The translations under genes and the position numbers were made by a program. From Spirochaetaceae bacterium (GTDB taxonomy: Bacteria > Spirochaetota > Spirochaetia > DSM-2461), in the NCBI GenBank assembly GCA_051531975.1, contig JAOPTT010000006.1:128656-192655 (forward strand): DNA of 64,000 nucleotides. The letters run 5' to 3'. Within the stretch, counting starts at the first letter, position 1. Each line of letters starts with the position of its first letter. The notes under the pieces are model-generated. The model did not search any database and was not told the DNA's origin. It was given only the letters and a program-made list of their open reading frames with translations. This document shows, piece by piece, positions 23,899-45,942 of this stretch.

Positions 23899-23982
23899 CC
23901 AACCACATTATCTGTCTATAGAAATCTTTCATCATTTCAAATTTTTAGTGAAGTCTTTTTACACTATAAATAGTAATTTCGC

Positions 23983-24456: not shown

Positions 24457-25570
24457 TCAGCTGGCTCTGTAATAATGATTGTGCAATCCGTAGAGGACCG
24501 GCTTCTTCTTCACTTTACCGGAGATATCAGGAGGTCTACCTTCTGGGATTGCTCCAAGACCTTGATGTGGGCGATATTGATTATAATATTCCATGTAGGA
24601 ATTTATGATATTCCTCAACTGCTTCTTTGAGAAGATGATAAACCAAACTAAACATTCCTGTCTTACAGATCTGAAAAATATCTCGGCATATGCATTGAGA
24701 TTGGGAGAGTAGGGAGTGGTTGCAACTCCATTGATTTCGTATACCTTATATGGGAAGTGTTTAAGTTCACCAGAGTTATCATGAATCAAATATGAGTAAG
24801 GATAAAGCTCTTCAAAATAAGAAAACTGACTTCTCAGGAACTTTATATTCGGATTCCGGGTGATATTATAATGAACAATATTCCTGCTCTTGAGTTCTAT
24901 AATGAAGAAGACATAGAATCTTTTAAACCCAAAGATATCAACAGTAAAGAAGTCACAAGCGAATATAGAGTGCCAATGAGATTTAAAAAAACCTGCTACA
25001 TGAATAATTGGGATTGATGTCTCCAGATTTACGGAAATCCTGAATGACTTTCCTGATTGTCTCTCTGGATATATCGATAGAAATCTTCTCTAACTCATCT
25101 TGGATGCGCATACAGCCCCAAAGATAGTTTTCAATCTTTAATTTATTAATGAGGAGTTTCATTGCTTTTGAAATAGGAGGTCTGCCGCTTTTTCTGGTTT
25201 TAGGTTTATTATAAGTCCAGTAATCTTTGATAGTTTTTTTCATTTGTAAAGAATTGTCTCTTGAGTTACAAGTGTGAATGTTCTTGTTTTTGGATTGCTG
25301 ATGAACATTGAACGGACAAACCATTTCTCTTGAATGGAGAAGGTGAGATTTATGTTCTTCTCATCAAAGTACCGTTTATATCTCTGGTTCTCTTGCCAGA
25401 TTAGAGAAATTTTAGGAATAATAGATTTTCTGTTGATGATGTAGAAGATGGAGAATTCAAGTAGTTGAAGCAATGATTTTAGAAGTAGCATATTCATAGA
25501 ATCGGCATATTAAAAGGGGGTCTGTGAAATTGTTGAAATATTTTTTGTCGGTAATTAGTTGGTAGAACGG
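24457..25570 (-). mobile_element. Frameshifted integrase-core (rve/DDE) transposase pseudogene with its 5' end
   Basis: Three ORF pieces: GRPPIS...ENYLWG..RIQDEL, then ACDFFTVD..KRFYVFFIIEL in the gap, then HDNSG..SPNLNAYAE..YYNQYRPHQGL; at least two frameshifts, one at a T7 run near 24985. Confidence 0.88.
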
Positions 25571-25796
25571 GAGTAGTACGTGAAAATCTAAAAAGCCATA
25601 GCACGGGCTTAATGCCTATATCAGTAATAAAAATTTATACTTCTTATTGTGGATGTATTTTCTTCTTATCCACTGTAAGTTTTTTTGGGATTAGTATTCT
25701 CTATTGACATCAATAATAATAAAACCTATCATTTTGGTAGGAATTAAAATATCTATTTTAGTAGGAATTGAAATATCTATTTTATAAGGAGCTTGT

Positions 25797-26315
25797 ATGA
25801 AAGTAAAGTATATGATTATTGTACCATTTCTTCTGTTTTTTCTTTTTGGATGTGACTTCTTAGGGTTAAATGAAGGTGATGATGGAACACCCATTACACC
25901 TTATAATGCCCTAGCAGGGCAATGGACGAGAACAGAGTTAATCGATGAAGTTGGGGATGATTTTGGCAAATATTGGTATGAGACTTACCAGTTTGAGGCT
26001 GATAGTATGCTTCAACTGAGTGGGATTTGTGATGATGCTGACTGCACTACTGGTGTCGTTCCAGATCCAAGCTCATCTCAATCTGTAACATATGGTGGAA
26101 CAGTAACTTCAACAGAAGGCCTCTCAGTCTATGAGGTCGATTTTGAGAACAGTGAAGGTGGTGAGTTTTATACTATAATCCATGTTGATTCTAGTGTGGA
26201 TCCACATGTTCTCACATTTGGTGATTCTGATGCAGATTCGGATTATGATGGTTCAACTGCTCTTAAACGTGTGCAAGGGCTAGGATCTAACCCGGAAACT
26301 TTTAGCAGACCATAG
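25797..26315 (+). CDS. Hypothetical acidic lipoprotein
   Basis: AAGGAG RBS, lipobox LFGC, L.G.W motif. Confidence 0.75.
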   Translation: MKVKYMIIVPFLLFFLFGCDFLGLNEGDDGTPITPYNALAGQWTRTELIDEVGDDFGKYWYETYQFEADSMLQLSGICDDADCTTGVVPDPSSSQSVTYGGTVTSTEGLSVYEVDFENSEGGEFYTIIHVDSSVDPHVLTFGDSDADSDYDGSTALKRVQGLGSNPETFSRP

Positions 26316-26320
26316 TAGGC

Positions 26321-26357
26321 TTTAATTTCTTCAGATTTAGTTTCTGAAGAAATTAAA
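26321..26357 (+). terminator. Hairpin terminator after the lipoprotein gene
   Basis: Perfect 15-bp stem tttaatttcttcaga / tctgaagaaattaaa. Confidence 0.75.
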
Positions 26358-26787
26358 TTTTTATTACTGTAATGTTTAACATCATTGATTTCCATTATAT
26401 GGCTGAGTGCACAATTTTGTATTAATTAAGAAAGTTCTCATTAAAATAAATCATTAGTATATAATCTAGAAAAAGTTATAAAATTAGTTAAATATTCAAA
26501 TACTGATTCACTACTACAACCTAATACAATAATAACTATTACTACTTAAAAGTTTAAAATAGCAACTAAAGCTGCCCATAGTGAAAACTTAATATGACAA
26601 AAGTAAATCAGATAAAAATTGATGCAACTCAATTGATCTCATAAGCTTTAATAAATTTGAATCAGAAATAAATCAGACATATGTTGGTTATAACCAGTAA
26701 ATTAAAGCTTTCCAACAATATTTTAAAACACCTATCCTGAGGATAATGACGAAACATTTTAATATTAGATTAGCTGGATCTGAAATA

Positions 26788-26927
26788 ATGACGATGTATA
26801 AGAGGGTAAACTCAAGTAATTTAAGAAATTATTTTTGAAGTAGGATATTTATAGAATCGGCAAGTTAAAATGTCTCTAAAATTACTGAAATATTTTATGA
26901 CCGTAATTTATTGTCAGTTCGGGACTA
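26788..26927 (-). mobile_element. Third degenerate copy of the IS-like 5' end
   Basis: gaagtaggatatttatagaatcggcaagtta...attactgaaatatttt...taatttattgtcagttcggga matches the 23806-23898 and 25474-25571 copies. Confidence 0.75.
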
Positions 26928-27099
26928 CCTGGTTTTCTGTTTTATACTATTATATATGTTTTGGGTTGAACTGAATTAGAGTTTTAATATAGATTTATAC
27001 TTTACAAATAATGGCTTCTTTTATTACATCACATAAACCTTTATACAATCTATAATAATTCAAAATGTTGGAATATTCAAATCTGGCTTTATGTCTATT

Positions 27100-27437
27100 C
27101 AGTTGGGGGAATTCCACTATTGGGCAAGAGATTGGTGTTTATTATATTAGAATTGAATACCCGAAAGATTGATAAGTGGAGTTTAACTGAAAATCAAAAT
27201 AGGGAGTTCGTCAGACAACAAATAATTTATTTCGCATATGAATATAAGGAATCTAAAACTCTTATATATGATAAAGCTCCGTAATTTACATCAATCGACT
27301 ATTCTGATTATTGAATTACATGAGTAAATATTTCTCTCGCTTCACCGAACATGAATGCATTTGTAGAAATATTGAACGTAACTATTAGAAGAGAAGCTCT
27401 CGATCATTTTCTCCAGTTTTCTGAAAAGAAAGTTAGA
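27100..27437 (+). pseudogene. Decayed integrase-core transposase fragment (opposite orientation)
   Basis: Manual translation SPNMNAFVEILNVTIRREALDHFLQFSEKKVR, plus RLVFIILELNTRKI upstream; several stops. Confidence 0.75.
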
Positions 27438-27649
27438 TGTAAATCTATGATATATCACCTAAACCAGAAGAGATTCGTGACTATAAAAAATGGACTAAAG
27501 AGTTAATTAAAATCATGTTTAAAGATGATTATATTAAAGATATATTTTAATATTAGACACATTAATCGGGTGTCTTTTTTTTAAAACCATTTGATTTACA
27601 TAAAAAGACACAATATAATATATATATATATAAAGAAAACGAGGGGTTT

Positions 27650-27937
27650 ATGATGGAAGAAGTCAAATATGAAAACTGTGAAAACGGTTCTATTGAAAAA
27701 GAAATAACATATGTAGATGGTATAAAACATGGCCTTGCTAAATCATATCATCCATTGGGAACATTACGAAGTGTTGGAACATTCTATAATGGAGAACTTC
27801 ATGGTGTAAGTGTTGTATATCATCTCGATGGTACTACTCTTGCAGGTGTAAAAGTCTTTGAACATGGTAAAAGTGTTGGACCTACAACAGTATATGAAAA
27901 AGATGGTTCTCTAAGAACAATTGATAAAAAAGATTAA
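27650..27937 (+). CDS. MORN-variant / YwqK-like repeat protein
   Basis: Repeats ENGSIEKEITYVDGIKHG..SYHPLG..FYNGELHG; GAGG RBS. Confidence 0.8.
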   Translation: MMEEVKYENCENGSIEKEITYVDGIKHGLAKSYHPLGTLRSVGTFYNGELHGVSVVYHLDGTTLAGVKVFEHGKSVGPTTVYEKDGSLRTIDKKD

Positions 27938-27951
27938 ACATACAAATAAAC

Positions 27952-27979
27952 AGACATCTTACCAGGGTGTCTATTTTTT
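27952..27979 (+). terminator. Terminator after the MORN gene (similar hairpin upstream at 27555-27582)
   Basis: agacatc...gggtgtct plus T tract; upstream agacac...gtgtct plus T tract. Confidence 0.65.
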
Positions 27980-28283
27980 GTCCAAAATATATAAAAAACG
28001 TACTATAAAATCTCATTATTACTTTTTATTTACACAAGATAACTTTAGATAACAACAAGAAAGCATAGTTATTGAAAAGGTGATTGTTATGATTATTGAA
28101 GAGTATATGGTCTTGGGTTATTTTTTACATCTGCCATCAAAACATAGACTTTTTCTAATATACAGATATATAAATTATGTTCATATTCCTTCGCTCATTA
28201 CTTAATACAATATTCAAGATAATTTTCAATATGCTGTACCTACCACTTAATCCAATGATTTTGATTTATTAAATCTTTAATAA

Positions 28284-29189
28284 TTAGTGAAGGGCATAAT
28301 ATTCCATTTTTTGGTACTTCTATCATGAACAGCTAAAAGTTTATCAGTTTCATGTTTAGATTCAATAATTCCAGACCTCTTAAAAGAAGAATCTTTAGAA
28401 ACCACAAGAATATGGTATTTAGCAGGCAGACTAGAAAATGAGTCTGTGTTTATTAGAAAATCACCAATAAGAAAACCTCACCATGCAGCATCATTAGAAG
28501 GTTTAGTTGGTGGTGGTAAACATCATCAGCCAGGTGAAATATCTTTAGCACATAACTGTTACCTATTTTTAGATGAAATCACAAAGTTTAAATCTTCCAT
28601 AATTCAAAGTCTAAAATAACCTATGGAGGAGAGAAGGGTATCTTTAAATAGAGCCACAGTTTCAACTTGGTACCCTGCAAACTTCAGACTAATAGCAACA
28701 GCAAACCCATGCCCTTGTGCAAACTTAGGTAAAGAAGATGGTATCTGCTTGTGTTCCGAAAAGGAGATTAGACGTCATTGGAAACGAATGGGTGGAGCTA
28801 TAATGGATAGAATTGTTATTAGACTTCCTGTAACACCTGTTTTTACAAAAGTCATGATTGGGCAGAAAGGGGCAAATTCTAAGGATATAAAGGCGAAGGT
28901 TGATATTGCTGTTAACAGTCAAAGATCATGATATAAAGACTCTTTAATAACCTGGAATGCCATAATACCATCTGGTGAAATTGATAAGTTTTGTTATCTA
29001 TCTGAAGAATTAAAACAGATGTTTATTAAAGGTGTTAATTCACTATCCTTATCATCTAGAGGTTGCCACTCAGTACTTAAATGTAGAACCATAGCTGATT
29101 TAGATGAATCCATAAACATAACATAAAAACATATATTAGAGGCATTTACATATAGAAGGTATGGAGATGAGGATTATTATTTTAATTAG
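28284..29189 (+). pseudogene. comM: comM 3'-half copy 1 (matches comM about 22680-23584)
   Basis: Collinear from the GHNIL motif to YRRYGDEDYYFN*; Walker A scrambled; several in-frame stops. Confidence 0.95.
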
Positions 29190-29382
29190 AATAAGTCTTA
29201 TCAGTTTAATAAAAGATACTAATAAGCCAGAATAGTTAAAATAATAAAGTTTACTAAATGAGTTACGTAACATTCTATTATTTAATAATCTTGATGAGTA
29301 AATGGATAAGTTTGTTAAACATATATATTTGTTTTACAATTAAATTAAATATCATTAATATGTATAAATTAGGTGGTGTCTA

Positions 29383-30360
29383 ATGAATGTTAATAATAGA
29401 ATTAACATGTATTTTGTTACATTTCTTATAGTATTTTTCTTAATTGGATGTGTTGGAACTCCTTCTGTTGAAAAAGAACAAAGGCTTGCTTTTAATGGTT
29501 CTACTATAAATAATAGATTAACATTAGAGGGTAAAAGCATTACTTTACCCGAGGATTGGTCTTTTGTTCATAATATAGATAAAGAGGGGACTCTATTTAA
29601 TTTTCGTTCACCTGAAGGTATCGAGGGAGGACTTGAATATATCTCTTTTGATTATGAAATAGATATTGAAGAGCTAAATGACTTTTACAAAGACTTTGTA
29701 TTTCAATCTGATGAAAGAATTCATGTTAGTAAAATTGAACATGATAAATTGGGTAGTGTTACTAGCTTTACGGGTATTGCTAATAATCGAAATATTTATA
29801 CTCTTTTATTAAGTGAAGGAAGCAATGTTACTTTTATATATTTCTCTAGTTCCGAAGACTTTCCTATAACAACTCAAGAAATATCAATAATCCTAGATAC
29901 ATATTCCATTGAAGATAGGAGTTGGATGTCCGTACGAGAAAAACCGGGTATGCCATTATTTTCCAGTGTTGATAATACCTGGATTTGGTATAATGATTTT
30001 AAAGATGGATTTTACATAGCTAAAGATATAGAAGATGCTTATGGAGATATTATTGCTGGGATATGGTCGTTAACAACTTTAGAACTTGATGAACTTAAAA
30101 ACAGAGATGAATTTAATATACAACCCTTTACATATAACTTTACGATTCAAAATAAAGATATTCTTTGTACTGTTTATGGGCAAAAAAGTAGTTCTGATGA
30201 TTCTTCTTTGTATATCATCTTCGAACTAAACGGTACTACATATTGTCTTAATTTGATGCAGAATGTTATTGAAGCTGATATCAATCCTAGTACATTATTA
30301 GTAAAACTGAATATACAAGAACTATTTGACTATTATTTACTATTTTCTGAGGGTATATAA
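29383..30360 (+). CDS. Hypothetical lipoprotein
   Basis: Lipobox LIGC; 325-aa ORF; AGGTGG RBS. Confidence 0.75.
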   Translation: MNVNNRINMYFVTFLIVFFLIGCVGTPSVEKEQRLAFNGSTINNRLTLEGKSITLPEDWSFVHNIDKEGTLFNFRSPEGIEGGLEYISFDYEIDIEELNDFYKDFVFQSDERIHVSKIEHDKLGSVTSFTGIANNRNIYTLLLSEGSNVTFIYFSSSEDFPITTQEISIILDTYSIEDRSWMSVREKPGMPLFSSVDNTWIWYNDFKDGFYIAKDIEDAYGDIIAGIWSLTTLELDELKNRDEFNIQPFTYNFTIQNKDILCTVYGQKSSSDDSSLYIIFELNGTTYCLNLMQNVIEADINPSTLLVKLNIQELFDYYLLFSEGI

Positions 30361-30361
30361 A

Positions 30362-31951
30362 ATGAAAAAATTATTAGTTCTTATTACCTTTTATATATAT
30401 GTTTTTACTATTTTTTCAGAATCTAAACCTATAGTACAGATTGATCCTATAGTTAATATGTCAGAAGAAGATTGGTTAGAAGCTCTGTGCATTAAAACAG
30501 CCAATTCAGTTAGTTTAACGCTTAAACTACTGGGTAGGTTTGATGTTTCTATGGACATTCCAGATGAAATAGAACTGATAGATATAGATGTACTTAGAAT
30601 TAGAGCTGAAACAGAAGGTTATGATAATATCATTTTTGGATCCTGCTCTTTTATTGATGGTAACTATATAATATCCATGAACGCCTATGATAGAGCTTTA
30701 AATAAAATAACATACTCAAATTCAACAACAGTAGAATCTATTTTTGATACACTAGATGCAATTGATCAGATAATAGATAAGACTGTAGAAGGCTTTTCTG
30801 GAATACATGTTACATATGGAAGCCTTAAACTAATACCTCCTACTACAGGTGAACCTATTAGTTTTACAATCGATAATGTTGCTCTACCAACTGGTGTATT
30901 TACAATTGAGAAGATACCATCTGGTGTTCATCAGGTGGCTGTTACCCAAAATAGACCTTTGGGATTGCATGTCGCAACTCATGATATTGTTATAGACGAA
31001 AAAATTAATAATCAAATACCAATACCAATTACACTAATTACTAAAGAAGAATCTATTATATTTAATAATGCAGACAATAATCTAAGAAATGCAACATTAG
31101 AAGAAAATATTAATTCTACTTCAATATTTGAAGATATTAACATTCTCACATCGTCAACTTTTTTTAAAGAGTTCCGTCCAGACATAGTTTATAAATATGA
31201 GAAATGGAAATCCTTAATAAATGATATAAAGGATTATAGTAATCAAACAGATAAAAATATAAGAAAAAGAGGTTCAAATTCAATTTGGAATAAGCAGGCT
31301 AATCCTATTGTAGATAACATTGTCGTTAGTTTAACGTCTCAATTCGAAATTAAACCAGATAGAAAGTTACTAAAAAAAGTTAATAAGATACTACCTGATT
31401 TTAAGACTATAACTATTGATGGTAAGGCTGATGATTGGGAGGATGTTACTTCTGGTTACTTAGATCCTATTGGAGACTCCAATTTAACCTCGTTTAAATC
31501 AAAAAAAGGTAGTGATATTATTGAAGTAAAGTATGCGATAGATACAAAATATTTATATATAATGTTGCGGTCAGCAGATGAACAGTATATAAATCAAGGC
31601 TTAGTACATACTTTAGGACTTTATGGAAAAAAATCTACATATTATAACTATCACTTATACAGAGAAGACAATCTTTGGGTTGGAATATCAAACATCAATG
31701 AACGAGATTTTGTTTCGTGGGATACTATGGAAACAAAATTAAAGTTTAGGAAAGGTGAAATATTTGAAACAGCTATACATTTAAATACATTAATAGAATC
31801 TTCGGCTTTTAGTACTGAAATGAGATCATATATAGGTATGCACTTCGATAATATAAATGATAATAAATGGGAGCTAGTTGATGAAATAAATACGAAACAT
31901 AAAATAGTTTTTCCATTAGTTGAATTGTTAATAAAGAAAGAAAATAAATAA
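30362..31951 (+). CDS. Hypothetical secreted protein (TolB-N/PEGA-like region, possible carbohydrate-binding C-terminal domain)
   Basis: Signal peptide; ITIDGKADDWE...DPIGD motif. Confidence 0.65.
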   Translation: MKKLLVLITFYIYVFTIFSESKPIVQIDPIVNMSEEDWLEALCIKTANSVSLTLKLLGRFDVSMDIPDEIELIDIDVLRIRAETEGYDNIIFGSCSFIDGNYIISMNAYDRALNKITYSNSTTVESIFDTLDAIDQIIDKTVEGFSGIHVTYGSLKLIPPTTGEPISFTIDNVALPTGVFTIEKIPSGVHQVAVTQNRPLGLHVATHDIVIDEKINNQIPIPITLITKEESIIFNNADNNLRNATLEENINSTSIFEDINILTSSTFFKEFRPDIVYKYEKWKSLINDIKDYSNQTDKNIRKRGSNSIWNKQANPIVDNIVVSLTSQFEIKPDRKLLKKVNKILPDFKTITIDGKADDWEDVTSGYLDPIGDSNLTSFKSKKGSDIIEVKYAIDTKYLYIMLRSADEQYINQGLVHTLGLYGKKSTYYNYHLYREDNLWVGISNINERDFVSWDTMETKLKFRKGEIFETAIHLNTLIESSAFSTEMRSYIGMHFDNINDNKWELVDEINTKHKIVFPLVELLIKKENK

Positions 31952-31963
31952 TAGAAATATTTA

Positions 31964-31999
31964 GCATAATATTTTTGGTACTGATTATGTTAGAATTCA
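31964..31999 (+). repeat. Short remnant of the comM-copy 5' junction
   Basis: gcataatatttttggtactgattatgttagaattca versus cataatattcttattttggtacttctatcgtgtttagattca at 39182. Confidence 0.45.
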
Positions 32000-32297
32000 G
32001 TTTATATTTTCTATATATACAACTTTTAAATCAAATAAAGCTATAGTCAATTGATTTAATTTGTTGTTAAGTGGAATTCTAGAATATGATATATTTAATA
32101 CTATTAGAATTGAACATCCTATGCATTTCTATATTAAACTAACTCAATAATAGATATTAAACTAAGGATTACAACTTATGAAATTATCTCTGAGAATTTG
32201 ATTATGGAAATCTTTCACTTTTAGTTTCATAAGCAATATTAACTACAGGACAAATTAAAAATATTGTATAATACTATTTTTGTTCTATAATTTAATT

Positions 32298-32714
32298 ATG
32301 AAAAAAATATATGTCATATTATTAGTTTTTTTATTTTGTCAATTATGGGGGCAAGATTTTACAGGAACTTGGAAATCAGATACTTTTGAGTATAATTATA
32401 ATGGTGCTGATGATATTCTGTATACCGAAGTTATTTACACTGAAAGCACTTTTATCTCAACAAATTATTACTCAGAAAAAGAAGGTATTCAGTTTAAAAT
32501 CTGGGGTATTGTTGAGATTATTGATATAGATTCTTTAATATTAACAACTAATAAGTATATGGATCAAAAAACAGGTGAAGAAATATCCATAGAAAATGGT
32601 CAGGTTAGATATATAAATTATATAATTAAAGAAGATATTCTTACCTATGAAAAAAGAGATAAAAATCAAAATGAATTTGGTGATTTTTTTCTTGAATTTA
32701 AAAAATTAAAATAG
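32298..32714 (+). CDS. Hypothetical secreted lipocalin-like protein
   Basis: Signal peptide followed by DFTGTWKS motif. Confidence 0.65.
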   Translation: MKKIYVILLVFLFCQLWGQDFTGTWKSDTFEYNYNGADDILYTEVIYTESTFISTNYYSEKEGIQFKIWGIVEIIDIDSLILTTNKYMDQKTGEEISIENGQVRYINYIIKEDILTYEKRDKNQNEFGDFFLEFKKLK

Positions 32715-32760
32715 GTTAAAGATATAAAAACTTAAACTATAAATTGTTATTTACGGCATC

Positions 32761-32930
32761 ACCCACGACAGGTTTGGGACATTTTTAGTTTAGTAATATA
32801 TCCTTGTTCAACAAATGATGAAACGCCACTAATCATTTATCGATGTAATTTTATAATTGTGTAAATATATCTTAATTCTATAGAGAACATAATATCCTAT
32901 ATTTTGATACTCCTATCGACTACAGCTAAT
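32761..32930 (+). repeat. Leader plus comM-junction repeat unit (homologous to 39073-39210; leader part also at 60997-61080)
   Basis: CAGGTTTGGGACA at 32769 and 39085; acataatatcctatattttgatactcctatcgactacagctaat matches copy 1 at 33/44 nt. Confidence 0.75.
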
Positions 32931-33169
32931 GTAACATATATTATTAGGTGTACCAAAAGAGAGTCTGGGTGAATGTGGAAATATTACCTCATACAATATT
33001 AAGTATGCTTTAAGAACTCGTCATTCAAAAGTATCTAGTTCATTACACATAAATTAGTCATGAATATTTTAGTTTATATTGTATACATAGTATTAAATAA
33101 AGCAAAATTTTCAATTTGTACAAAATCCAACTTTCGTACTGCCAATATATTTAAAACGTACCTCGCGTT

Positions 33170-33274
33170 TCAATTCATTAATAAGATAATAACCGTTTGT
33201 GACATTACAATTAAAATAACGATTCCAGCCGAAATGAATAGAACCTTTCCATTGGCGACACTCATGTAGTCCAT
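33170..33274 (-). pseudogene. Truncated 5' stub of a membrane protein gene (DUF5058-like)
   Basis: AGAGGA RBS, then MDYMSVANGKVLFISAGIVILIVMSQTVIILLMN*, directly after the kinase stop; family assignment from recall. Confidence 0.45.
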
Positions 33275-33290
33275 TTTTTATTCCTCTGTT

Positions 33291-36200
33291 TTATATACTA
33301 TTTAAAATCTCTTCTAATATCATTTTTGCTTCTTTCATTTTGTATTTACTAAGAAATTTTAACGCCTCTTCTATTTTTGAATGTGATAGTTTCTCTAATA
33401 TCTCTACTGCTGGTTTAGGTTTTCTTTTTTCAAGGAATCCTATAGCCGATTGTAAACTCTCTTTTAGCTCATCATCAGTTATATTTTTTACCTCTGCAGA
33501 CACTTCGACTTCAGTTGATATATTCTCATTTACACCATTTATCATCTGATTTAATACTGGCAGTATTGTTTTAAGTGCCTGTAACCAATCGCCGTCTTCT
33601 TTAAACTCTTTTTCTAACACTGCAGAGAGTTTCTGAAGCTCTTCTCCACCAAGGTTGGCACTTACTCCTTTTATTGTATGAGCAGCTCTTATAGCTTCTT
33701 CTCTGTTTTCTTTGTCCGTAATAGCTTTTATATCATTTTCAAACTCTTTATAGTCTGTTGCGAACTGTTTCAGAAGTTTTTTATATAACTTTCTATTACC
33801 ACCAACTCGATTTAAGCCCTGTTCTGTATCTATTTTAGGTAAAACAAGATCTTCTTCTTTGTCATTATTAGAACTCTCGATATTTTCTGTATAATAATCA
33901 GGAATGATTCTCTTTTTAGGTTTTATCCAGGCAGCTAGTGTATTCCATAATTCAGTGGTATTAATTGGTTTAGTAATGTAGTCATTCATCCCTACTTCTA
34001 TAACTTTATCCCTAACACCGGTCATTGCGTCGGCAGTCATGGCAATAATTGGCAGCCTATCTTGTGTAAAAGTTTTTCTAATAAGCTCTGTTGATTCATA
34101 ACCACCCATTACTGGCATTTGAAGATCCATAAGCACTAATTCATAGTCACCTTCTAAAGCCATATTCGCTCCGATCTGACCATTATCTGCGATATCGATA
34201 TAGAAGCCCTCTTGTTCAATTAATTCTTTTGCTACCTGTTGGTTTATATCATTATCTTCAACGAGCAGAATCTTTGCACCTCTAATATCATCAAAGTTTT
34301 CTGGTTTCTCATCTTTTTTATAATCATTGGTCAAAAGATTTGTAGACTTACCAAATACATTCATTATAGTATCAAGTAACATTGACGGACTAACTGGTTT
34401 AACAAGGAAGCCTTGTAGACCAATATCTTGTGCTTCGTGAATTATCTCTTCACGGCCAAAACTGGTCACCATTACTATCTGAGGAATTTCTACATTTTCT
34501 AACTCTGTTTTTATCTTTTTAGAAGCTTCGATACCATTCATTCCTGGCATCTGGTAATCCATTAAAACTAAGTCATAAACTCTGCTACCCTCTGCCTTAG
34601 ATTTAATTATCTCCCTAAGGGCTAAGTCCCCGGACTCAACACCGGTAACTTCAAAATTCATCTCTTTTAGATAGATTCCTAGAACCTCTCGTGATGTCTC
34701 ATTGTCATCTACAACAAGAACTTTTAATCCCTTTAACTCGACCGGGGTCGCTTTTACCTCTTTTTTCTCACCAATTTCTAGTAGTGCTGTGAAATAGAAG
34801 GTACTCCCTTCTCCATGTTCACTGTTTACCCCAATTTCTCCTCCCATCATCTCTGATAGTCGTTTACTAATGGTAAGTCCTAAGCCTGTTCCTCCATATT
34901 TTCTTGTTGTAGAGGAGTCGGCCTGGGAGAATGATGTAAATAGTTTATTTATCTGTTCCCCAGTTAATCCGATACCTGTATCCCTAACTTCAAATCGTAA
35001 CATAACACTGTTCTCAACCTGTTTTACTAGTTTCGTTGCAACTTCAATCTCACCACTTTCAGTGAACTTAACCGCATTGTTAGACAGGTTAAGAAGAATT
35101 TGCCCTAATCTTAATGGATCACCTATAAGATCGTTTGGTATTGCTGACTCTTGGTTGAAGATCAGCTCTACACCCTTAGAGCTAGCTTTATCCCCAATCA
35201 TATCTGCTAGTGAAGACATTACACTATTTAGAAAAAAAGGGATCTTCTCTATATCTAGTTTACCTGCTTCAATCTTAGAAAAATCTAAAATATCATTGAT
35301 AATACCTAATAAGTTTTTAGCTGCCCCATTTATCTTTTCAGCATAATCTTTCTGCTTTCTATTTAGTTCCGTTTTAAGTAATAAGTGGTCTAAACCTAAT
35401 ATCGCATTCATTGGTGTTCTTATCTCATGACTCATATTAGCTAAAAAGTCACTTTTGGCACGGGTAGCAGCTTCTGCTTCATCTTTTGCTAGCTCTAATC
35501 CCTGTTGTGCTAGGACTTGCTCACTTACATCAATAAATGTTCCCATTTCTTGTAGTGCTGTACCATCTTTATTCTTTTTTGTTACATCACAACGGAGACC
35601 TACAAAACGAACTTCGCCATTGCTTTTAATTACAGGGTATGTAGCACTATAACTATCAATTTCTCCTGTAATAGATGCTGAAAACTTAGTTAAAATATCA
35701 TCAACCATAACTTGATATTCAGGGGTTAGTTTTGCTACATCTTGCATTAAACCAGCCCATTTACTTATGTTATATGTACCTTCAGGATTTATCGGAAACT
35801 CTAACATCTCTGCTACATTGTCAGTGGCATGAAAAGTATCTTCTTCGTTAAAATTTATCCACCAAACACCCACTTCTGAAGCTTTAAGTGAACCGTAAAC
35901 AAGTTGATTTAGTAGGTTTAGACTGTTTTCTCGTTCTTTATCCTCCGTAATATTCTTGTTTATTCCCATCATAGTCTTTGGGCTTCCATCACTATTTCTT
36001 TCTACTATTTGACCATCACCTGACATCCATATATATTTCTCATCAGAAGGATGCCTATATCGAAAAATAGAGTGATATTTATCTACTTTTCCTTCTAAAT
36101 GATCTGTGAGTGCTTTAAATGCCTCTTCTTTATCTTCAGGGTGTAGCCGTTCCCCCCATGTTTTGGCAACATTCTCTTCTGTTGGATCAAAGCCAAATAA

Positions 36201-38852
36201 CTTTAGGTACAAAGGAGAGCCTATGGTTCTATCAGTTGCTACGTCCCACTCCCATGTTGCAAGTCCAGCACCCTCTGTTGTTATTTTAAATCGTTCATCA
36301 CTTCTTTCTAACTCTTTAGTTCTAGCTTTTACATTCTCTTCTAAAATTTTTCTCTGCTTATATAAGGTTTTTGTACGATTATTTAGAATTAATAATATTA
36401 ATCCTATAACTAATATTATATATAGTGATATTGCCCACCATCTAAACCAAGGAGGATTCTCTACATGGATTAATAAAGATACTTCCTGTTTAGGTAGACT
36501 CCATATCCCATCATTATTTGTACCTCGAACTCTAAGTGTATAAGTCCCCCCAGGTAGCCCTGTATATGAACCAAAACGACGAGTTCCAGCCTTATACCAC
36601 TCTCTATCATAACCTTCCAGTTTATATTCAAATCTGTTTTTTTTAGAGAATAGGTAGTTCAGAGCGGTATACTCAAACTCTATTGAACGATCTCGCCAAC
36701 CAAGGCTTATTTCATCTAAATGTTCAAATGATTTATCTGTCTTTATGATCTCTCCACTCTGTTTTATAGCAGTAATATAGATGTTAGGTGATAGGTCATT
36801 TGATGTTAATTCCTCTGGGATAAAACGGTTTAAGCCGTTATAACCACCAAACCATAAAGCACCATCATCGGATTTTCCTCTGGCGGTAGCAAAAAAGTCA
36901 TGGCTATGTAGACCATCCTCCTTTGTGTATACTTTAAGAACTTCTTCAGTCTCTATGTCTATAGAAACCAAACCAATATCAGTTCCTAACCAGATTCTTC
37001 TACTTCTATCTTCTAAAATATTGTGTACTATTGTTGCTTTAAAACCACGTTCTGATCCAATTCTGTCAAAGGTTCCTGTTTTTTTATCAAAAAGGTGTAG
37101 CCCACGGTCTGTTGATACCCAGAACTTACCAGTAGAGTCCTCTAGAACATCGTAAACAGTATTTGAACTGATTGATTTAGAGTCTGATGGATTGTGTTGG
37201 AAGTGAGTAAAAGTTGATGTAGTTTGGTTAAACTTCTCTAATCCTCCTCCCCAGGTTGCAATCCATAAAATGTTTTTATCATCCTTATCTCTAATCATTC
37301 TAATTGAAGTTACTGCTGCAAAGCTTTCTGGGTTATTAGGGTCGTGTTCAAAAACCTCTCTCTCCATAGTTTTTAGGTTCAGTCTATGTAGACTTTGTTC
37401 CCAACCTACAGCCCATATAACATCGGGGTTTTTATGATCTTCAATCATGGTGTAGTACCAGGTATCATCGGTATACTGTCTGATCACTTCTCTTTTATTA
37501 GAGTCCCAGGTAACTAACCCCCCTGCAGTAGATATAAAAAAATCACCCTTACTACTTTCGTAAAAACCAGATGAATATCCGTGGGGAAGTGTTTTAGGAT
37601 TAGCTGAATCACTTTTATGATGGGTAAAGCTACCATCAGCAGGGTTATATAGGTCTAAACCTTCACCAAAGTTACCAATCCATACATTCTTATTTGTGTC
37701 TTGGTAAATAGGCAACGGTGAATTACTTGCAATTGAATTTGGGTTACTGAGGCTATGGGTAAAGAGTTCAAAGTTATGCCCTCTTGGATCAAACTTATCG
37801 ACTTTTCCGTTGGTATGAACAATCCAAAGAGTTCCATCTCGGTCTTCAAAAGCACCAGTAATGGTGTCAGTGGTGAGTATTGGATCTTTACCTATTTCAT
37901 TTATATACTGCTTAAAAGTTTCACTTATAGGATCAAAGATTATAACTCCATAGGATGAAGCATCACTTAACAGTATAATATTTCCATTTTTTAACTGGTA
38001 GATGTCACCAATACGTATATTTGGTATAGATTTTTGGTCTAATGGGTCATGTTTTACAATAGAGAATAAACTACTTTGTTTGTCCATACGAATAAGGCCA
38101 TCGTTTAGAGATGCAAACCAAATATTCCCATTGGTATCTTCAAATACTGCTCTAATGCTATTTTGGGGAAAGCTGTTAGGATCTTCAGGATTATTAATAT
38201 AACGAGTTACCTCACCTGTTTCAGGATCTAATCTATTTACACCACTCTCTTTTGTACCTATCCATATAAAACCTTCACTGTCTTCAAACAGGCAGAAGAT
38301 ATTGTTCTCTGAGATTGAATTTGGGTCATTAGAGTTGTGAAAGTAGTTTGTAAACTCCCCATTAAAGTACATAGAGAGGCCAGTTTGTGTTCCAAACCAC
38401 ATACGACCTCTTTTATCTTGAATAATACATTTTGATGAGAAGTTGAAAACATTTCCTGCTAAGGTTGTAGTAGTGTTTTCAGGATCCCCATAAAACTTTT
38501 TAATACTGTTTGTTTTTTTGTTGTAAATATTTAATCCGTAGTTTGTTCCTACCCAGATTTTACCATCATCATCTTCAAACAGTTGTGTAACAAAATCGTT
38601 ACTAATACCATTTTCTCCGGCTTTTATCGGTTTTGTTTCTGCACCATCGAATCTAACCATTCCATTAAAGAATGAACTAAACCAGAGAAAGCCATCTTGG
38701 TCTTGTATTACAGAATAACAGATCTGACCTCCAATATCGAAGGTGTAATCAAATGATGGGTTGATATCTTCCTGTATTCCGAAGAGCGTTATAGATATGT
38801 TAAGTAAGAATATAACAAAGAATATATTTGAGATAAAAATACGATTTTTCAT
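33291..38852 (-). CDS. Giant hybrid sensor kinase: beta-propeller/YYY sensor, TM, PAS, HisKA, HATPase, two REC, HPt
   Basis: ED..G.IWIGT repeats, YTGLPGGTYTLRVRGTNNDG, FLANMSHEIRTPMN, GGTGLGL, LMDYQMP, LMDLQMP, AHTIKGVSANLG. Confidence 0.93.
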   Translation of the reverse strand: MKNRIFISNIFFVIFLLNISITLFGIQEDINPSFDYTFDIGGQICYSVIQDQDGFLWFSSFFNGMVRFDGAETKPIKAGENGISNDFVTQLFEDDDGKIWVGTNYGLNIYNKKTNSIKKFYGDPENTTTTLAGNVFNFSSKCIIQDKRGRMWFGTQTGLSMYFNGEFTNYFHNSNDPNSISENNIFCLFEDSEGFIWIGTKESGVNRLDPETGEVTRYINNPEDPNSFPQNSIRAVFEDTNGNIWFASLNDGLIRMDKQSSLFSIVKHDPLDQKSIPNIRIGDIYQLKNGNIILLSDASSYGVIIFDPISETFKQYINEIGKDPILTTDTITGAFEDRDGTLWIVHTNGKVDKFDPRGHNFELFTHSLSNPNSIASNSPLPIYQDTNKNVWIGNFGEGLDLYNPADGSFTHHKSDSANPKTLPHGYSSGFYESSKGDFFISTAGGLVTWDSNKREVIRQYTDDTWYYTMIEDHKNPDVIWAVGWEQSLHRLNLKTMEREVFEHDPNNPESFAAVTSIRMIRDKDDKNILWIATWGGGLEKFNQTTSTFTHFQHNPSDSKSISSNTVYDVLEDSTGKFWVSTDRGLHLFDKKTGTFDRIGSERGFKATIVHNILEDRSRRIWLGTDIGLVSIDIETEEVLKVYTKEDGLHSHDFFATARGKSDDGALWFGGYNGLNRFIPEELTSNDLSPNIYITAIKQSGEIIKTDKSFEHLDEISLGWRDRSIEFEYTALNYLFSKKNRFEYKLEGYDREWYKAGTRRFGSYTGLPGGTYTLRVRGTNNDGIWSLPKQEVSLLIHVENPPWFRWWAISLYIILVIGLILLILNNRTKTLYKQRKILEENVKARTKELERSDERFKITTEGAGLATWEWDVATDRTIGSPLYLKLFGFDPTEENVAKTWGERLHPEDKEEAFKALTDHLEGKVDKYHSIFRYRHPSDEKYIWMSGDGQIVERNSDGSPKTMMGINKNITEDKERENSLNLLNQLVYGSLKASEVGVWWINFNEEDTFHATDNVAEMLEFPINPEGTYNISKWAGLMQDVAKLTPEYQVMVDDILTKFSASITGEIDSYSATYPVIKSNGEVRFVGLRCDVTKKNKDGTALQEMGTFIDVSEQVLAQQGLELAKDEAEAATRAKSDFLANMSHEIRTPMNAILGLDHLLLKTELNRKQKDYAEKINGAAKNLLGIINDILDFSKIEAGKLDIEKIPFFLNSVMSSLADMIGDKASSKGVELIFNQESAIPNDLIGDPLRLGQILLNLSNNAVKFTESGEIEVATKLVKQVENSVMLRFEVRDTGIGLTGEQINKLFTSFSQADSSTTRKYGGTGLGLTISKRLSEMMGGEIGVNSEHGEGSTFYFTALLEIGEKKEVKATPVELKGLKVLVVDDNETSREVLGIYLKEMNFEVTGVESGDLALREIIKSKAEGSRVYDLVLMDYQMPGMNGIEASKKIKTELENVEIPQIVMVTSFGREEIIHEAQDIGLQGFLVKPVSPSMLLDTIMNVFGKSTNLLTNDYKKDEKPENFDDIRGAKILLVEDNDINQQVAKELIEQEGFYIDIADNGQIGANMALEGDYELVLMDLQMPVMGGYESTELIRKTFTQDRLPIIAMTADAMTGVRDKVIEVGMNDYITKPINTTELWNTLAAWIKPKKRIIPDYYTENIESSNNDKEEDLVLPKIDTEQGLNRVGGNRKLYKKLLKQFATDYKEFENDIKAITDKENREEAIRAAHTIKGVSANLGGEELQKLSAVLEKEFKEDGDWLQALKTILPVLNQMINGVNENISTEVEVSAEVKNITDDELKESLQSAIGFLEKRKPKPAVEILEKLSHSKIEEALKFLSKYKMKEAKMILEEILNSI

Positions 38853-39176
38853 AATTTAATTATATCTTTTAATCAGTTAAATACAAGTTGTTTTTAGGAG
38901 TCCATGTTATAACACGTGCAGCAATATCGAATTTATATTCTAATTACTAATTTGTAATATATTTACTTACATAAACTATTATATATGCTTTCGTATTGTG
39001 GTAATTACTCTACATTATAAATTTTATTATAGAAATCTTTCATCTTTAAAACTATACATAGTGATTTACTCCATACCGTTACTTCAGGTTTGGGACAATT
39101 TAATCTAGAAAAGTTTCACCATTAAAATGGTATAGTTGTAGTAATTTTGATTGTGATAATATTAAAATTTTAAATA

Positions 39177-39860
39177 AGGGACATAATATTCTTATTTTGG
39201 TACTTCTATCGTGTTTAGATTCAATAATTCCAGACCTCTTAAAAGAGGAATCTTTAGAAACCACAAGAATATGGTCTTTAGCTGGAAGACTAGAAAATGA
39301 ATCAGTATTTATTAGAAAACCTCCAATAAGAAAACCTCACCATGGAGCATCATTAGAAGGTTTAGTAGGTGGAGGGAAACATCATCAGCCAGGTGAAATA
39401 TCATTAGCTCATAACGGTTACCTGTTTCTAGATGAAATAGCAGAGTTTAAAACTTCCATAATTCAAAGTCTAAGGCAACCAATGGAGGAGTGAAGAGTAT
39501 CACTAAATAGAGCAAAAGTATCTACCTGGTAACCTGCAAACTTTAGGTTAATAGCAACTGCAAACCCATGTCCATTTGCAAACCTAGGTAAAGAAGATGG
39601 TATCTGTATGTGCTTAGAAAAGAGATTAGATGGTACTGGAGACGAATTGTGGAGTAATTATGGATAGGATAGATATTATGGTTCCTGTTACTCCTGTTTT
39701 AACTAAAGTTATGCTAGAGGATTAAGGTGCTAATTCTAAGGATATATAGATGAAGGTTGATATTGCTGTTAATAGACAAAGAACACGATATAAAGACTCT
39801 TCAATAACTTGTAATGCCAGAATACCATCTGGAGAAATTGATAAGTTCTGTTATCTATCT
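39177..39860 (+). pseudogene. comM: comM 3'-half copy 2 (comM about 22688-23395; Walker A partly deleted, 3' truncated)
   Basis: 94 codons identical in protein to comM, followed by stops and frameshifts; similarity ends at tgttatctatct (39860). Confidence 0.95.
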
Positions 39861-40294
39861 CAATAGTATGTGACATATTATGCGTAGTTTAAAAATAATA
39901 TAACACATAGATTAGCAACAATCCCCACGAGGTTAAATTTCGGTCGATTTTTGTATAATTATTGACAACCATGTAAAATAGGATTCATAATCACACTATA
40001 CATGTTAATATTTGTCCTGAATTTGAACACTACTCAAAAATAGATTAAAGCACATTTCTGTAGTAACAATTCTTGGCCCGTGACAATGTGACAAATGAAT
40101 GATTACCACAATGTTTTTAGAGAAACAGTGCAATAATCTTGCATTAGATTTTAAGTGGCTGGAGTTTTTTTTTAGAAAATATTGCAGTTCTGATATAGAA
40201 TATTGATAGAGTATTTAAGAAAAAGAATTTATTGGCTTTAAAGCCGATAGCTATACAAAGCTATAAATTATCCCCCAGAGAAAATGGAGACGAT

Positions 40295-42529
40295 ATGAAC
40301 AGAATAAAAAGCATTTTATTGATATCAGTAATATTATTGATAACACTATTAAGTAGTTGTGCCACTGTCGAGGTTCGTGCAGCAAAGAAAGGGGATATAG
40401 AATCCCTTAAGAAATTTATTGATAAAGGCGGCGACGTTAATGAGCCAGAAAAGGGTGGAACAACCCTACTCATGTATGCTTCAGAAGCCGGTCAGACTCA
40501 AGTCATCAGTTTTTTACTGGATAAAGGGGCAATTATCAGTCTCAAAGATAACAACGGACGAAGCGCATTTATTTATGCAGTCATAGCCCGAAAACAGGGC
40601 GCTGCCCAGCTGCTTCTACAGAGAGGTGCTGATGTAAACATAGTTCTCTCTTCAGGTGATTCTGCCCTAACTCTTACGGCTCAATCTCAGAATCAGAATA
40701 TGATAAAAATACTTCTAGAAAACGGAGCTGACCTGAATCATAAGAATTATGGTGGATGGTCTGCACTGACTCTCAGTCTCAGCAAGGATGCTCAAGGGCC
40801 TACAGGGATAAATAAGGCCAGCACTATTCTGATAGACCTGAATGCCGATCTGGACCCTGATTCTGGGAATGTTCGTATAGTGGCCTTTTCAGCAGCCTCA
40901 TCGGGAAATAAAGACGTCCTTAAATATCTGCTGGATCTAGGATTAGATCTTGAAAGTAAGTCCGATAAAGGGGCGACCCTTCTACTAACTGCTGTTTTAG
41001 CACAGAAAATCGAAATGGTACGTTATCTCCTGAATCTTGGAGCCGACTGGTCTGTAAAGGATTCATCAGGATGGTCAATCCTTATGAAATCCCTGTATGA
41101 CAGTGCTTCTAAAGGTAAAGGGCTGGATACAATTGCAAAACTTCTTATGGATAAAGGTGCCCGTCCGGAAGGCTCTTCACCACATGGTGTAACCACAGGA
41201 TACAAGGCTGGAGAGAAAGGGGCAGTAGAGATACTGAGCCTTCTCATTGATAACGGACTCTCTCCTAATATCAAGGATTCATCGGGATGGTCAATTCTTA
41301 TGAAATCCCTATATGACAGTGCTTCCAATGGTAATGGGCCAGATACAATTGCAAAACTTCTTATGGATAAAGGCGCCCATCCGGAAGGCTCCTCTCCACA
41401 GGGTGTAACTACAGGATACAAGGCTGGAGAGAAAGGGGCAGTAGAGATACTGAACCTTCTCATTAATAACGGACTCTCTCCTTATATCAAGGATGCAAAA
41501 GGCAATAGCCTTCTAATTATTGGTATTGCACATACAAAGATTGTCAAGCTGCTGATTTCCTTGGGTGTTCCTGTAGATGGTAGAAACGAGCAGAGATATA
41601 CTCCTTTGATTATGGCTGCAGCCGGTGGCTATAGAGATTCACTTTCTCTCCTCTTGCGGGCAGGTGCAGAACCGGACCTCAGGGATAACAATCGCCAGAC
41701 AGCTCTGTTATATGCAGCCGGAACCTCAGATGTTGAAATGGTTCGTAAACTGCTGATTGCGGGAGCTTCTCCCCATACCACCGATAAAACAGGTAATACA
41801 GCTCTACATAAAGCAGCAGCTAAAGGTGTTCCAGAAACAGTTCGCCTGTTACTGACATCTGGAACCTATGTGGATTCTGCAAATGCTCAGGGAGATACAC
41901 CCTATGTTCTAACTTATAAAAACAAGAAACAAGGTTCTAGCATAAGAGAAATACTGGCAATAGGGGGTGCAAAGGTTCCTGTAGAAAAGCCGACAATCGT
42001 AGAAAAACCGACAATCGTAGAAAAACCGACAATCGTAGAAAAACCGATAATCGTAGAAAAACCGATAATCGTAGAAAAACCGATAATCGTAGAAAAACCG
42101 ATAATCGTAGAAGTGCCGACAATCGTAGAAGTACCGACACCTAAACCACAGCCTGCTTCACCAGTAGAGCCTGAAGCTGGCACACAACCTGACCTAACAG
42201 TCCGATTCGGTTGGCCTTCTATCAACCCTTCAGACATAAGAGGCTGGAATAACAGTGATAAGATGATTGGAACAGCTACACTACAGATCGGCTACAGTTC
42301 AGAATCATCATGGTTTTACGAGCACACAATGGATATTCCAAGAAAAGGTGTAAATGCCGACAGCTATGAAGCAAATCTTGATTTTGGAAATAGAACCTTA
42401 GACCCCTGTAAAGCAGTTTTAACTATTCCTACCAAGAAAGGAAATGCCCTAGTATGTGAAATCACAGTTCAACCTGACCTGGATGGTAGAATGATTCTGT
42501 ATTTTGAAGATTTCATATATAAAAAATAG
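40295..42529 (+). CDS. Ankyrin-repeat lipoprotein
   Basis: Lipobox LSSC; many G.T.L..A....G....V..LL..GA repeats; Pro-rich linker; ATG 40295 with GGAGA RBS. Confidence 0.92.
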   Translation: MNRIKSILLISVILLITLLSSCATVEVRAAKKGDIESLKKFIDKGGDVNEPEKGGTTLLMYASEAGQTQVISFLLDKGAIISLKDNNGRSAFIYAVIARKQGAAQLLLQRGADVNIVLSSGDSALTLTAQSQNQNMIKILLENGADLNHKNYGGWSALTLSLSKDAQGPTGINKASTILIDLNADLDPDSGNVRIVAFSAASSGNKDVLKYLLDLGLDLESKSDKGATLLLTAVLAQKIEMVRYLLNLGADWSVKDSSGWSILMKSLYDSASKGKGLDTIAKLLMDKGARPEGSSPHGVTTGYKAGEKGAVEILSLLIDNGLSPNIKDSSGWSILMKSLYDSASNGNGPDTIAKLLMDKGAHPEGSSPQGVTTGYKAGEKGAVEILNLLINNGLSPYIKDAKGNSLLIIGIAHTKIVKLLISLGVPVDGRNEQRYTPLIMAAAGGYRDSLSLLLRAGAEPDLRDNNRQTALLYAAGTSDVEMVRKLLIAGASPHTTDKTGNTALHKAAAKGVPETVRLLLTSGTYVDSANAQGDTPYVLTYKNKKQGSSIREILAIGGAKVPVEKPTIVEKPTIVEKPTIVEKPIIVEKPIIVEKPIIVEKPIIVEVPTIVEVPTPKPQPASPVEPEAGTQPDLTVRFGWPSINPSDIRGWNNSDKMIGTATLQIGYSSESSWFYEHTMDIPRKGVNADSYEANLDFGNRTLDPCKAVLTIPTKKGNALVCEITVQPDLDGRMILYFEDFIYKK
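41057..41488 (+). repeat. Recent 216-bp tandem duplication inside the ankyrin gene
   Basis: 41057-41272 and 41273-41488 are near-identical (KDSSGWSILMKSLYDSAS...NGLSP). Confidence 0.92.
41981..42139 (+). repeat. 18-bp tandem repeat (VEKPTI/VEKPII, about 9 units)
   Basis: gtagaaaaaccga[c/t]aatc units. Confidence 0.95.
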
Positions 42530-42760: not shown

Positions 42761-42855
42761 GAATATCGTCACTAGTAGGCAGACTAGAAAATGAATAAGT
42801 ATTTATTAGAAAACCACCCCAAACACACACCATGGATCTTCATTAGGAGGTTTAG
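42761..42855 (+). pseudogene. comM: comM copy 3, left piece (comM about 22800-22897)
   Basis: gaatatcgtcactagtaggcagactagaaaatgaataagtatttattagaaaacc...catggatcttcattaggaggtttag. Confidence 0.88.
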
Positions 42856-42867
42856 AATAATAGATAT

Positions 42868-43725
42868 TTAATACTCATCAAGAAAGCTATGCTTCTCCTT
42901 ATTTTTTGTCCAGCCAATTATTGCATCGGTAAATATATTTTTACTGGACATAAATATACTTTTATCAACATCCTGAAATGTTTCTCCAAGTTTTTTAATT
43001 AGATCTTTAACCTCACGTCTTTTACTAGATGTTTTTTTAGCGGCTACAATACAACCACAATTCATGGCATTTAGTCCATTTTCAGATGTGAACTCTTTTA
43101 TATCGTCCTCTCTAACATAATATAGTGGTCTAATTAACTCCATATTCTCAAAATTAGTTGATTTTAATTTAGGCATCATTGTTTGATATTTACCAGAGCA
43201 TAGAACATTCATCATTATTGTCTCTATTACATCGTCATAGTGGTGACCTAATGCGACTTTGTTACATCCTAACTCCTCTGCCATAGCGTAGAGTGCTCCC
43301 CGCCTCATTCTTGCACATAGGTAACATGGATAGTCATTTGCTATTTTATCTACTACCTTAAATACATCTCTATCGAATATTTTTAAATCGATATCTAAGT
43401 GTTTGCAGTTACTCTTTAGTTGATTCTTATTAGCTTCATTAAAACCAGGATCCATAGAGATAAAGTGAAGGTCAAACTTAAAAGGACCGTGTTTTTGAAG
43501 TTCTTGAAATAGTTTTGCCATTAATAGACTGTCTTTCCCACCGGAAATTGCAACAGCTATTGAATCTCCTTCGTTTACAAGTCCAAACTCTTTAATACCC
43601 TTTATAAAAGGGGTCCATAGAGTTTTTCTCATAGTAGTAATTAGACATTTCTCTATATCTTTAACTGATTGTAGAGCATTTTTAGGTATTATTAACTCAC
43701 AACCACTTCCTGAAACTCCTGACAT
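42868..43725 (-). CDS. ttcA: TtcA-like tRNA 2-thiocytidine biosynthesis protein (PP-loop)
   Basis: SGGKDS, CYLCARMRRG, ALGHHYDD, LIRPL; GGAGGA RBS before ATG 43725. Confidence 0.85.
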   Translation of the reverse strand: MSGVSGSGCELIIPKNALQSVKDIEKCLITTMRKTLWTPFIKGIKEFGLVNEGDSIAVAISGGKDSLLMAKLFQELQKHGPFKFDLHFISMDPGFNEANKNQLKSNCKHLDIDLKIFDRDVFKVVDKIANDYPCYLCARMRRGALYAMAEELGCNKVALGHHYDDVIETIMMNVLCSGKYQTMMPKLKSTNFENMELIRPLYYVREDDIKEFTSENGLNAMNCGCIVAAKKTSSKRREVKDLIKKLGETFQDVDKSIFMSSKNIFTDAIIGWTKNKEKHSFLDEY

Positions 43726-45912: not shown

Positions 45913-45942
45913 ACTATACATATTAATTTCCGAAATATATAT

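Follow-up and report, generated by a model that had tools for sequence, protein, structure and literature searches.

A 64,000-nucleotide (nt) stretch of the genome of a Spirochaetaceae bacterium (GenBank assembly GCA_051531975.1, contig JAOPTT010000006.1; G000:C6:128656-192655), referred to here as the window, was analysed around its comM gene. The intact gene is followed by damaged copies of its own 3' part, by a short conserved sequence that is not comM and by cargo genes. This locus likely preserves, in fossil form, a series of site-specific insertions into comM, all at the same point (22727-22728, window coordinates) and later decayed. The insertions would number at least three, and probably five. 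Each would have left comM intact by swapping over half of the gene for a foreign allele, so that the working gene would be a serial chimera.

The intact comM gene (22070-23584, + strand) encodes a protein of 504 amino acids (aa) from the YifB/ComM family. Its product has the Pfam domains Mg_chelatase, ChlI and Mg_chelatase_C, and it scored 539.8 bits against TIGR00368 (cut-off 362.4). In the whole 5.46-Mb genome, comM DNA matched at five places, the gene itself and four pieces of three copies. All four extra pieces lie downstream of the intact gene on the + strand, in direct orientation, and contain the 3' part only. Nucleotides 1-657 of comM had no second match in the whole genome. The third copy lies beyond the range named in a first-pass annotation of this DNA. 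The copies, and a later insertion in one of them, are as follows.

28335-29188, + strand: comM 3' copy 1, from codon 220 to the stop codon, 87% nt identity to native comM, three in-frame stops.
39209-39867, + strand: comM 3' copy 2, 90% nt identity to native comM, five stops, two frameshifts, truncated 3' end.
42761-42855, + strand: comM 3' copy 3, first piece, starting at native position 22800; the 5' boundary and any arm are lost.
43918-44612, + strand: comM 3' copy 3, second piece (copy 3b), 82% nt identity to native comM, stops and frameshifts.
42856-43917, - strand: later insertion of 1062 bp splitting copy 3, with a 287-aa TtcA-like PP-loop open reading frame (ORF; 42868-43731) and TTTAG on both sides.

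Where a copy reaches the comM stop codon, homology ends there, and the DNA beyond is different in each case. Damage grows with distance from comM, from copy 1 through copy 2 to copy 3, the last of which has stops, indels, a 5' truncation and the 1062-bp insertion. The first-pass annotation had argued that loss of the Walker A motif bars an active ATPase in the copies. This is correct but moot, as every copy also lacks at least the first 219 codons and has at least three stop codons.

The left boundary of copy 1 is sharp. Translated from 28335, it was identical to native ComM from the Walker A lysine onward (codon 220, nt 22727) at 41 of 42 residues, and the nucleotide differences just past codon 220 were mostly synonymous. 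Identity switched abruptly at the 28335/22727 point, with 51 of 60 nt matching to its right and 19 of 36 to its left. An earlier placement of the start of the copies at GHNI(L) was right about a fixed left boundary, but the comM homology of copy 1 begins only at the lysine codon. To the left of copies 1 and 2 lies a conserved arm, found at four junctions (S1 to S4).

22691-22770, + strand: putative attachment region in comM, with the GHNILLFGPPGVG codons as left arm (22691-22726) and the junction at the first bases of the Lys-220 codon (22727-22728).
28256-28336, + strand: junction S1, putatively element-derived arm (RE), ending in ...ACAGCTAA and abutting copy 1.
31965-32000, + strand: junction S4, shortened arm detected as a pattern match, followed by about 17 nt that appear comM-like when read by eye (without a scored alignment) and then by unrelated DNA.
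32769-32929, + strand: junction S3, arm with an upstream box CAGGTTTGGGACA, ending in ...ACAGCTAA with no comM behind it.
39085-39210, + strand: junction S2, arm with the same upstream box as S3; about 27 nt are deleted across the junction relative to S1.

The string TTTTGGTACTTCTATC occurs at 28309-28324 and 39195-39210, where native comM reads ATTTGGGCCTCCAGGAGTTGGG; both the strings and their positions had been given correctly in the first-pass annotation. It had described them as a derived junction shared by copies 1 and 2. The sharing is real, but the sequence CATAATAT..TTTTGGTACTTCTATC..ACAGCTAA left of copy 1 is not mutated comM but a separate conserved arm (RE), apparently element DNA, since comM identity begins only at 28335. 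The arm does resemble the GHNILLFGPPGVG codons (GHNI..FG), weakly but above chance: the alignment score was 4 against a null mean of -6, and it was matched by 24 of 3000 random genome segments.

That the arm is restricted to this locus was observed directly. On both strands of the whole genome, the pattern CATAATAT.{0,10}TTTTG[GA]TACT had four matches, at 28295 (S1), 31965 (S4), 32888 (S3) and 39182 (S2), all on the + strand and in an 11-kb span downstream of comM. A profile scan had been proposed earlier; with nhmmer and a profile of S1-S3, it returned only those three sites in the genome (E 6e-13 to 5e-8; next best E = 2.7), all downstream of comM. The box CAGGTTTGGGACA, about 100 nt upstream in S2 and S3, had two matches in the genome. 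Two further sites reported in the first pass were also recovered. The motif without comM at 32887-32930 matched 28294-28337 at 33 of 44 positions, as claimed, and the weaker site near 31964-31999 is real and lies at 31965-31982.

S1 and S3 define the end point of the arm. Up to ...ACAGCTAA they share 33 of 42 positions, past it 8 of 30, with S1 continuing into comM and S3 into unrelated DNA. The same arm end, at the same base, is thus joined to two different partners, which is the pattern that a site-specific cut produces. The arm as found in S3 and the comM homology overlap by AA only (28335-28336), and in such A-rich sequence a chance overlap is likely. An AA overlap would suit the dinucleotide core of a serine recombinase, but a tyrosine enzyme could likewise use the 6-nt identity AAAAGT, and no recombinase gene of either class is left between comM and the conserved genes further downstream. 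Just inside the boundary, native comM and copies 1 and 2 agree at every base of a 26-nt block (22745-22770 in native comM), which is the longest such run, followed by runs of 22, 21, 21 and 20 nt.

The selective history of the copies was estimated from the ratio of nonsynonymous to synonymous substitution rates (dN/dS; Nei-Gojobori method).

Native versus copy 1: dN/dS 0.093, dS 0.58.
Native versus copy 2: dN/dS 0.108, dS 0.34.
Native versus copy 3b: dN/dS 0.185, dS 0.59.
Copy 1 versus copy 2: dN/dS 0.141, dS 0.52.
Native versus the orthologues of two species of the same genus (G001 and G003): dN/dS 0.09-0.10, dS about 2.3 (saturated).

Values between native comM and its copies were as low as between orthologues, and differences between native comM and copy 1 fell on codon positions 1, 2 and 3 in the numbers 25, 13 and 74. 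A fragment dead from birth is expected to show a dN/dS near 1, and a pair of one live and one dead sequence roughly 0.5. The low values (0.09-0.19) therefore indicate that most of the divergence arose while each piece belonged to a working gene in a separate lineage. Judged by their substitutions, the copies are displaced functional alleles and not local duplications. A local segmental duplication of the comM 3' part, or of one ancestral scar, with later decay and insertion of cargo between the copies, would account for the direct repeats, the common boundary and the common arm. Such dead-fragment duplicates would diverge neutrally, which neither the comparisons with native comM nor that of copies 1 and 2 showed, and we consider this origin very unlikely. 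The first-pass annotation had favoured a defined recombination site or a common ancestral mobile unit over independent random duplications, and that view is borne out: the arm occurs only at this locus, S1 and S3 end at the same base, and the copies diverged under purifying selection.

Copies 1 and 3b, the most different pair, both lack 3 nt at native position 23473, and at the codon of native 23519 one reads TAA and the other TAG, a stop in either case. These common changes may go back to one ancestor, have spread by gene conversion or have arisen by chance. ComM is a cytoplasmic helicase. A role of the copies as silent cassettes for ComM variation was rejected, given this function and the stops and frameshifts in the copies.

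The anatomy of the locus, the confinement of the arm to it, the common arm end and the selective history of the copies are directly shown; that the elements were circular, in which order they arrived and which type of recombinase acted are matters of inference. Each incoming element would have been a circle carrying its own copy of the last 285 comM codons beside its attachment site, with the conserved arm RE (about 45-160 nt) on the other side. Recombination would have joined the 5' part of the host comM to the 3' part of the element, keeping comM whole and moving the previous 3' part behind the arm of the element. The newest unit would then adjoin comM, and the intact gene from 22727 onward would have arrived with the newest element, unit A. 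From newest to oldest, the order would be comM, unit A, S1-copy 1, unit B1, S4, unit B2, S3, unit B3, S2-copy 2, unit C, copy 3 (units listed below). S4 and S3 would be arms whose comM part was later deleted; alternatively, they may mark insertion at a secondary target site. The recombinase genes would have been lost, or the recombinase would have acted in trans.

The same topology would result from Campbell-type insertion, in which circles carrying the arm and a comM 3' fragment enter by a single RecA-dependent crossover anywhere in the ~860 bp of comM homology. The left boundary would then be fixed merely because a common ancestral element carried a fragment with that edge. This route needs no recombinase in the genome, and homologous recombination is feasible over 860 bp at 82-90% identity. 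Such circles still require a site-specific origin at codon 220, and the S3 arm end is joined to non-comM DNA, which homologous recombination within comM could not produce. The abrupt change of identity at the junction (19 of 36 left, 51 of 60 right) also speaks against a crossover of this type, which we regard as unlikely.

Another possibility is a cassette array filled in trans. Here, 1-6-kb units consisting of the comM 3' half, one or two genes and the arm would never have been autonomous and never have carried recombinase genes. A recombinase encoded elsewhere, or on a larger element since lost, would have added them in succession at the Walker A lysine codon, a process likened to integron capture or to the movement of cis-mobilizable elements. 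The five units (~0.9-6.3 kb) each hold one or two cargo genes and have the arm at the same end, and no unit contains recombinase remnants. If this were true, comM would be a gene-capture platform that keeps working, its ATPase and C-terminal half being swapped for a foreign allele at each capture. No integron-type integrase lies beside the array, however, and the arms do not fold into hairpins: in six folds they did no better than shuffled sequences (z-scores -0.08 to +1.0). Integron features were likewise missing, with no tyrosine recombinase (intI) nearby and no attC-like folding of the arms. Neither a second array nor a free cassette was found in the genome or in relatives. The deletion of recombinase modules, moreover, is described as common in tandem islands (PMC5704250, PMC3146451). 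Trans-filled cassettes thus seem quite improbable to us.

The comparison with relatives also supports insertion. Two same-genus relatives carried comM (G001 and G003), and each has a single comM of about 72% nt identity, with no copies. Upstream of comM, gene order is conserved with both. It breaks immediately past the comM stop codon, and the genes that follow comM in the two relatives map to G000:C6:278389-282989, in the same orientation, ~126 kb downstream of comM. The comM scars are confined to the first ~21 kb of the ~126-kb stretch (G000:C6:152240-278389), and the rest may stem from other islands or from rearrangement.

The integrity of the assembly was assessed with unitigs of one public run. 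These bridge the S1 junction, span S4 and S3 from the copy 1 end to within the kinase gene of unit B3, and connect the end of copy 2 to the ankyrin gene of unit C. Word depth was ~32-54 in 28 of 30 bins; it was higher in the other two, both within the kinase gene. The run was available as contigs only and, as the probable source of the assembly, does not support it independently. In its contigs, no credible excision joint was found; the joints listed had short sides (20-44 nt) and lay mostly within the kinase gene, and none linked comM to a copy. An assembly artefact, with comM alleles of co-occurring strains stitched into one contig, is conceivable for a metagenome bin with 2.9% estimated contamination, the more so as the sole run holding the stretch is probably its source and the repeated comM segments interrupt the unitigs. 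However, unitigs bridge every junction where unique cargo meets a comM copy, with the depth given above, and the copies have stops and truncations that are unexpected in live alleles of other strains. An artefact is therefore highly improbable.

Several observations weigh against repeated site-specific insertion. Copy 3 lacks the common boundary, S2 and S4 fit only with secondary deletions, and S3 fits only with a deletion or a secondary target site. Dyad symmetry at the native site and at the rebuilt attP was at chance level (best scores 11-12 of 22, shuffle medians 11-12). No match to a tyrosine recombinase (PF00589), resolvase (PF00239) or large-serine-recombinase (PF07508) domain was found between comM and the conserved downstream genes ~126 kb away, and no related recombinase-bearing element was found. 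The arm pattern had no match in genome_contigs and none in metagenome_contigs, both of which may omit the genome of the window itself. BLAST of the S2 arm against 37 other genomes of the family gave only AT-rich matches of 22-31 nt in four of them (E 2e-4 to 4e-3), which we read as chance. Finally, the genome is metagenome-assembled, and across the repeated comM segments it is the assembly that sets the order of the units.

The search for recombinases was extended to the whole genome and the class. PF07508 had no match in the whole genome at E <= 1, and PF00239 matched two ORFs of ~198 aa on other contigs. Within the class, 52 of 401 genomes had a PF07508 match. In 19 of these 52 the surroundings of comM were checked (14 by eye, among the matches listed) and no large serine recombinase (LSR) was found near comM, a result for which fragmented assemblies could hide cases. 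The distance between comM and the recombinase was 150-190 kb in G347, G182 and G357; in G352 the two are on different contigs, and G169 had no comM match. The C-terminal 302 aa of ComM matched in 354 of the 401 genomes. Displaced comM pieces elsewhere in the class were looked for, among the matches listed, in five genomes with multiple matches, and none started at Walker A. The extra matches in these five were other AAA+ genes, contig-split genes and fragments starting near residue 275. No ComM relatives were confirmed in metagenome_contigs.

Tn7-like transposons inserted in comM (AbaR type) contain Tns genes and split comM with a short target duplication. At the present locus comM is intact. 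A Pfam scan of 19 ORFs of at least 85 aa (19882-52278), which included no search by name for Tns families, found no Tns gene and no transposition gene other than decayed rve fragments, and the locus does not fit a Tn7-like transposon.

Scars of this kind are already known, from e14 in icd, from Dehalococcoides ssrA islands and from tandem accretion; the one described here is well preserved and has no recombinase. The locus shows the features of gene-restoring tandem islands, namely an intact target with direct 3' repeats, a fixed start marked by the element arm, once-functional pieces and an empty site in relatives. Missing is a unit with a site-specific recombinase gene. In Escherichia coli K-12, the replacement 3' end brought by the cryptic prophage e14 is described as keeping icd functional, with the displaced 3' end left as pseudogene icdC at the far side (PMC13626634). 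Both loci share an element inside a protein gene, a replacement 3' end carried by the element and a displaced 3' pseudogene at its far side. In contrast, e14 stands alone, has retained its integrase and is still able to excise, whereas the comM locus has several stacked units, no recombinase and 285 codons (56% of the gene) replaced each time.

The Dehalococcoides islands are reported to have a 20-bp repeat of the transfer-messenger RNA (tmRNA) gene ssrA and a 15-bp non-target motif that marks the insertion point; 15 islands are listed without an integration module, and 16 keep a CcrB-like serine recombinase (PMC3146451). As at comM, they lie in tandem downstream of one target gene, with direct repeats of the target 3' end and a conserved non-target motif just upstream of each. 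They differ in the repeat, 20 bp of a tmRNA gene there versus ~860 bp of a protein gene here, and in that no unit at comM has a recombinase. Stacking followed by decay has been termed 'accretion' (PMC5704250). The accreted and cis-mobilizable elements of the ICESt1 family are described there as conjugative or mobilizable Firmicutes elements with tyrosine integrases, whereas no transfer or integration genes were seen at the comM locus.

The target itself is a known one. In the account of Durrant et al. 2022 (PMC10083194), Mg-chelatase/comM homologues were the target of 12.4% of the predicted site-specific LSRs and both the most frequent and the most enriched target; PF01078 was found in 19 of 1069 LSR target clusters versus 0 of 908 random genes. 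The recombinase sr1WO of phage WO is reported to target a comM homologue as well (PMC9203015). These elements share the target gene family with the present locus, and they are described as disrupting the gene, each with its own recombinase. Here, on the other hand, the gene is restored and the genome has no LSR (PF07508). Typical marks of LSR elements were also missing, as there was no LSR gene (Resolvase and Recombinase domains) at an element end and there were no palindromic att sites. A literature search combining comM with attB, integrase, serine recombinase and integration hotspot found no paper on gene-restoring islands in comM.

Insertions of large serine recombinase elements into comM are usually read as switching off natural transformation, and the locus described here shows the opposite outcome. 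What is unusual is the length of the replaced piece (56% of the gene) and that a working comM was re-made several times from foreign alleles. The preserved junctions place the exchange point within two bases, with no recombinase present. The array also marks the start of the ~126 kb that the two same-genus species lack at this position.

The cargo of the putative units was annotated as follows.

23585-28255, no strand assigned: unit A cargo, with two decayed DDE (rve) transposase genes, a lipoprotein-like ORF, a MORN-repeat ORF and a dispersed repeat of ~230 nt.
24457-25497, - strand: decayed rve-type transposase gene of unit A (Pfam rve_3).
25797-26315: lipoprotein-like ORF of unit A, 172 aa.
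27120-27506, + strand: decayed rve-type transposase gene of unit A, judged only from its ORF translations.
27650-27937: MORN-repeat ORF of unit A.
29383-31951, + strand: unit B1 cargo, two overlapping ORFs of 325 and 541 aa with no family match.
32280-32714, + strand: unit B2 cargo, a single ORF of 144 aa with a signal-peptide-like start.
33291-38852, - strand: unit B3 cargo, a hybrid sensor kinase of 1853 aa with Reg_prop, Y_Y_Y, PAS, HisKA, HATPase_c, Response_reg and Hpt domains.
40232-42529, + strand: unit C cargo, an ankyrin-repeat protein of 765 aa with internal tandem repeats, encoded in a stretch of 39-45% GC.

Two lipoprotein-like ORFs are among the cargo overall. PADLOC and PHROGs searches with the unidentified cargo ORFs returned nothing. 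Rfam had no match at E <= 1 over 20000-48000, and no tRNA or tmRNA gene was found in the window.

The ~230-nt repeat occurs three times in unit A (23672-23898, 25340-25569 and 26789-26927), and further copies are present on contigs C1, C2, C9, C12 and C17 at 70-89% identity. The 541-aa ORF of unit B1 (30326-31951) belongs to a small family, with several paralogues of 39-52% identity on other contigs of the genome and few relatives elsewhere (15 matches). The ankyrin-repeat gene has a 216-bp tandem duplication (41057-41488; 92% identical) and, near its 3' end, nine 18-bp repeats (41945-42160). In the insertion that splits copy 3, the TtcA-like ORF scored 202 bits against NF007972, under the cut-off of 272. 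The first 30 nt around the left edge of this insertion resemble 32073-32102 (80%), just past junction S4. Right after copy 3 (44704-51680) lie genes for a caspase-domain protein (Peptidase_C14), a 992-aa Big_5 protein and a TPR protein, the last with a weak partial match to the anti-phage ProA model (59.5 bits, cut-off 1500).

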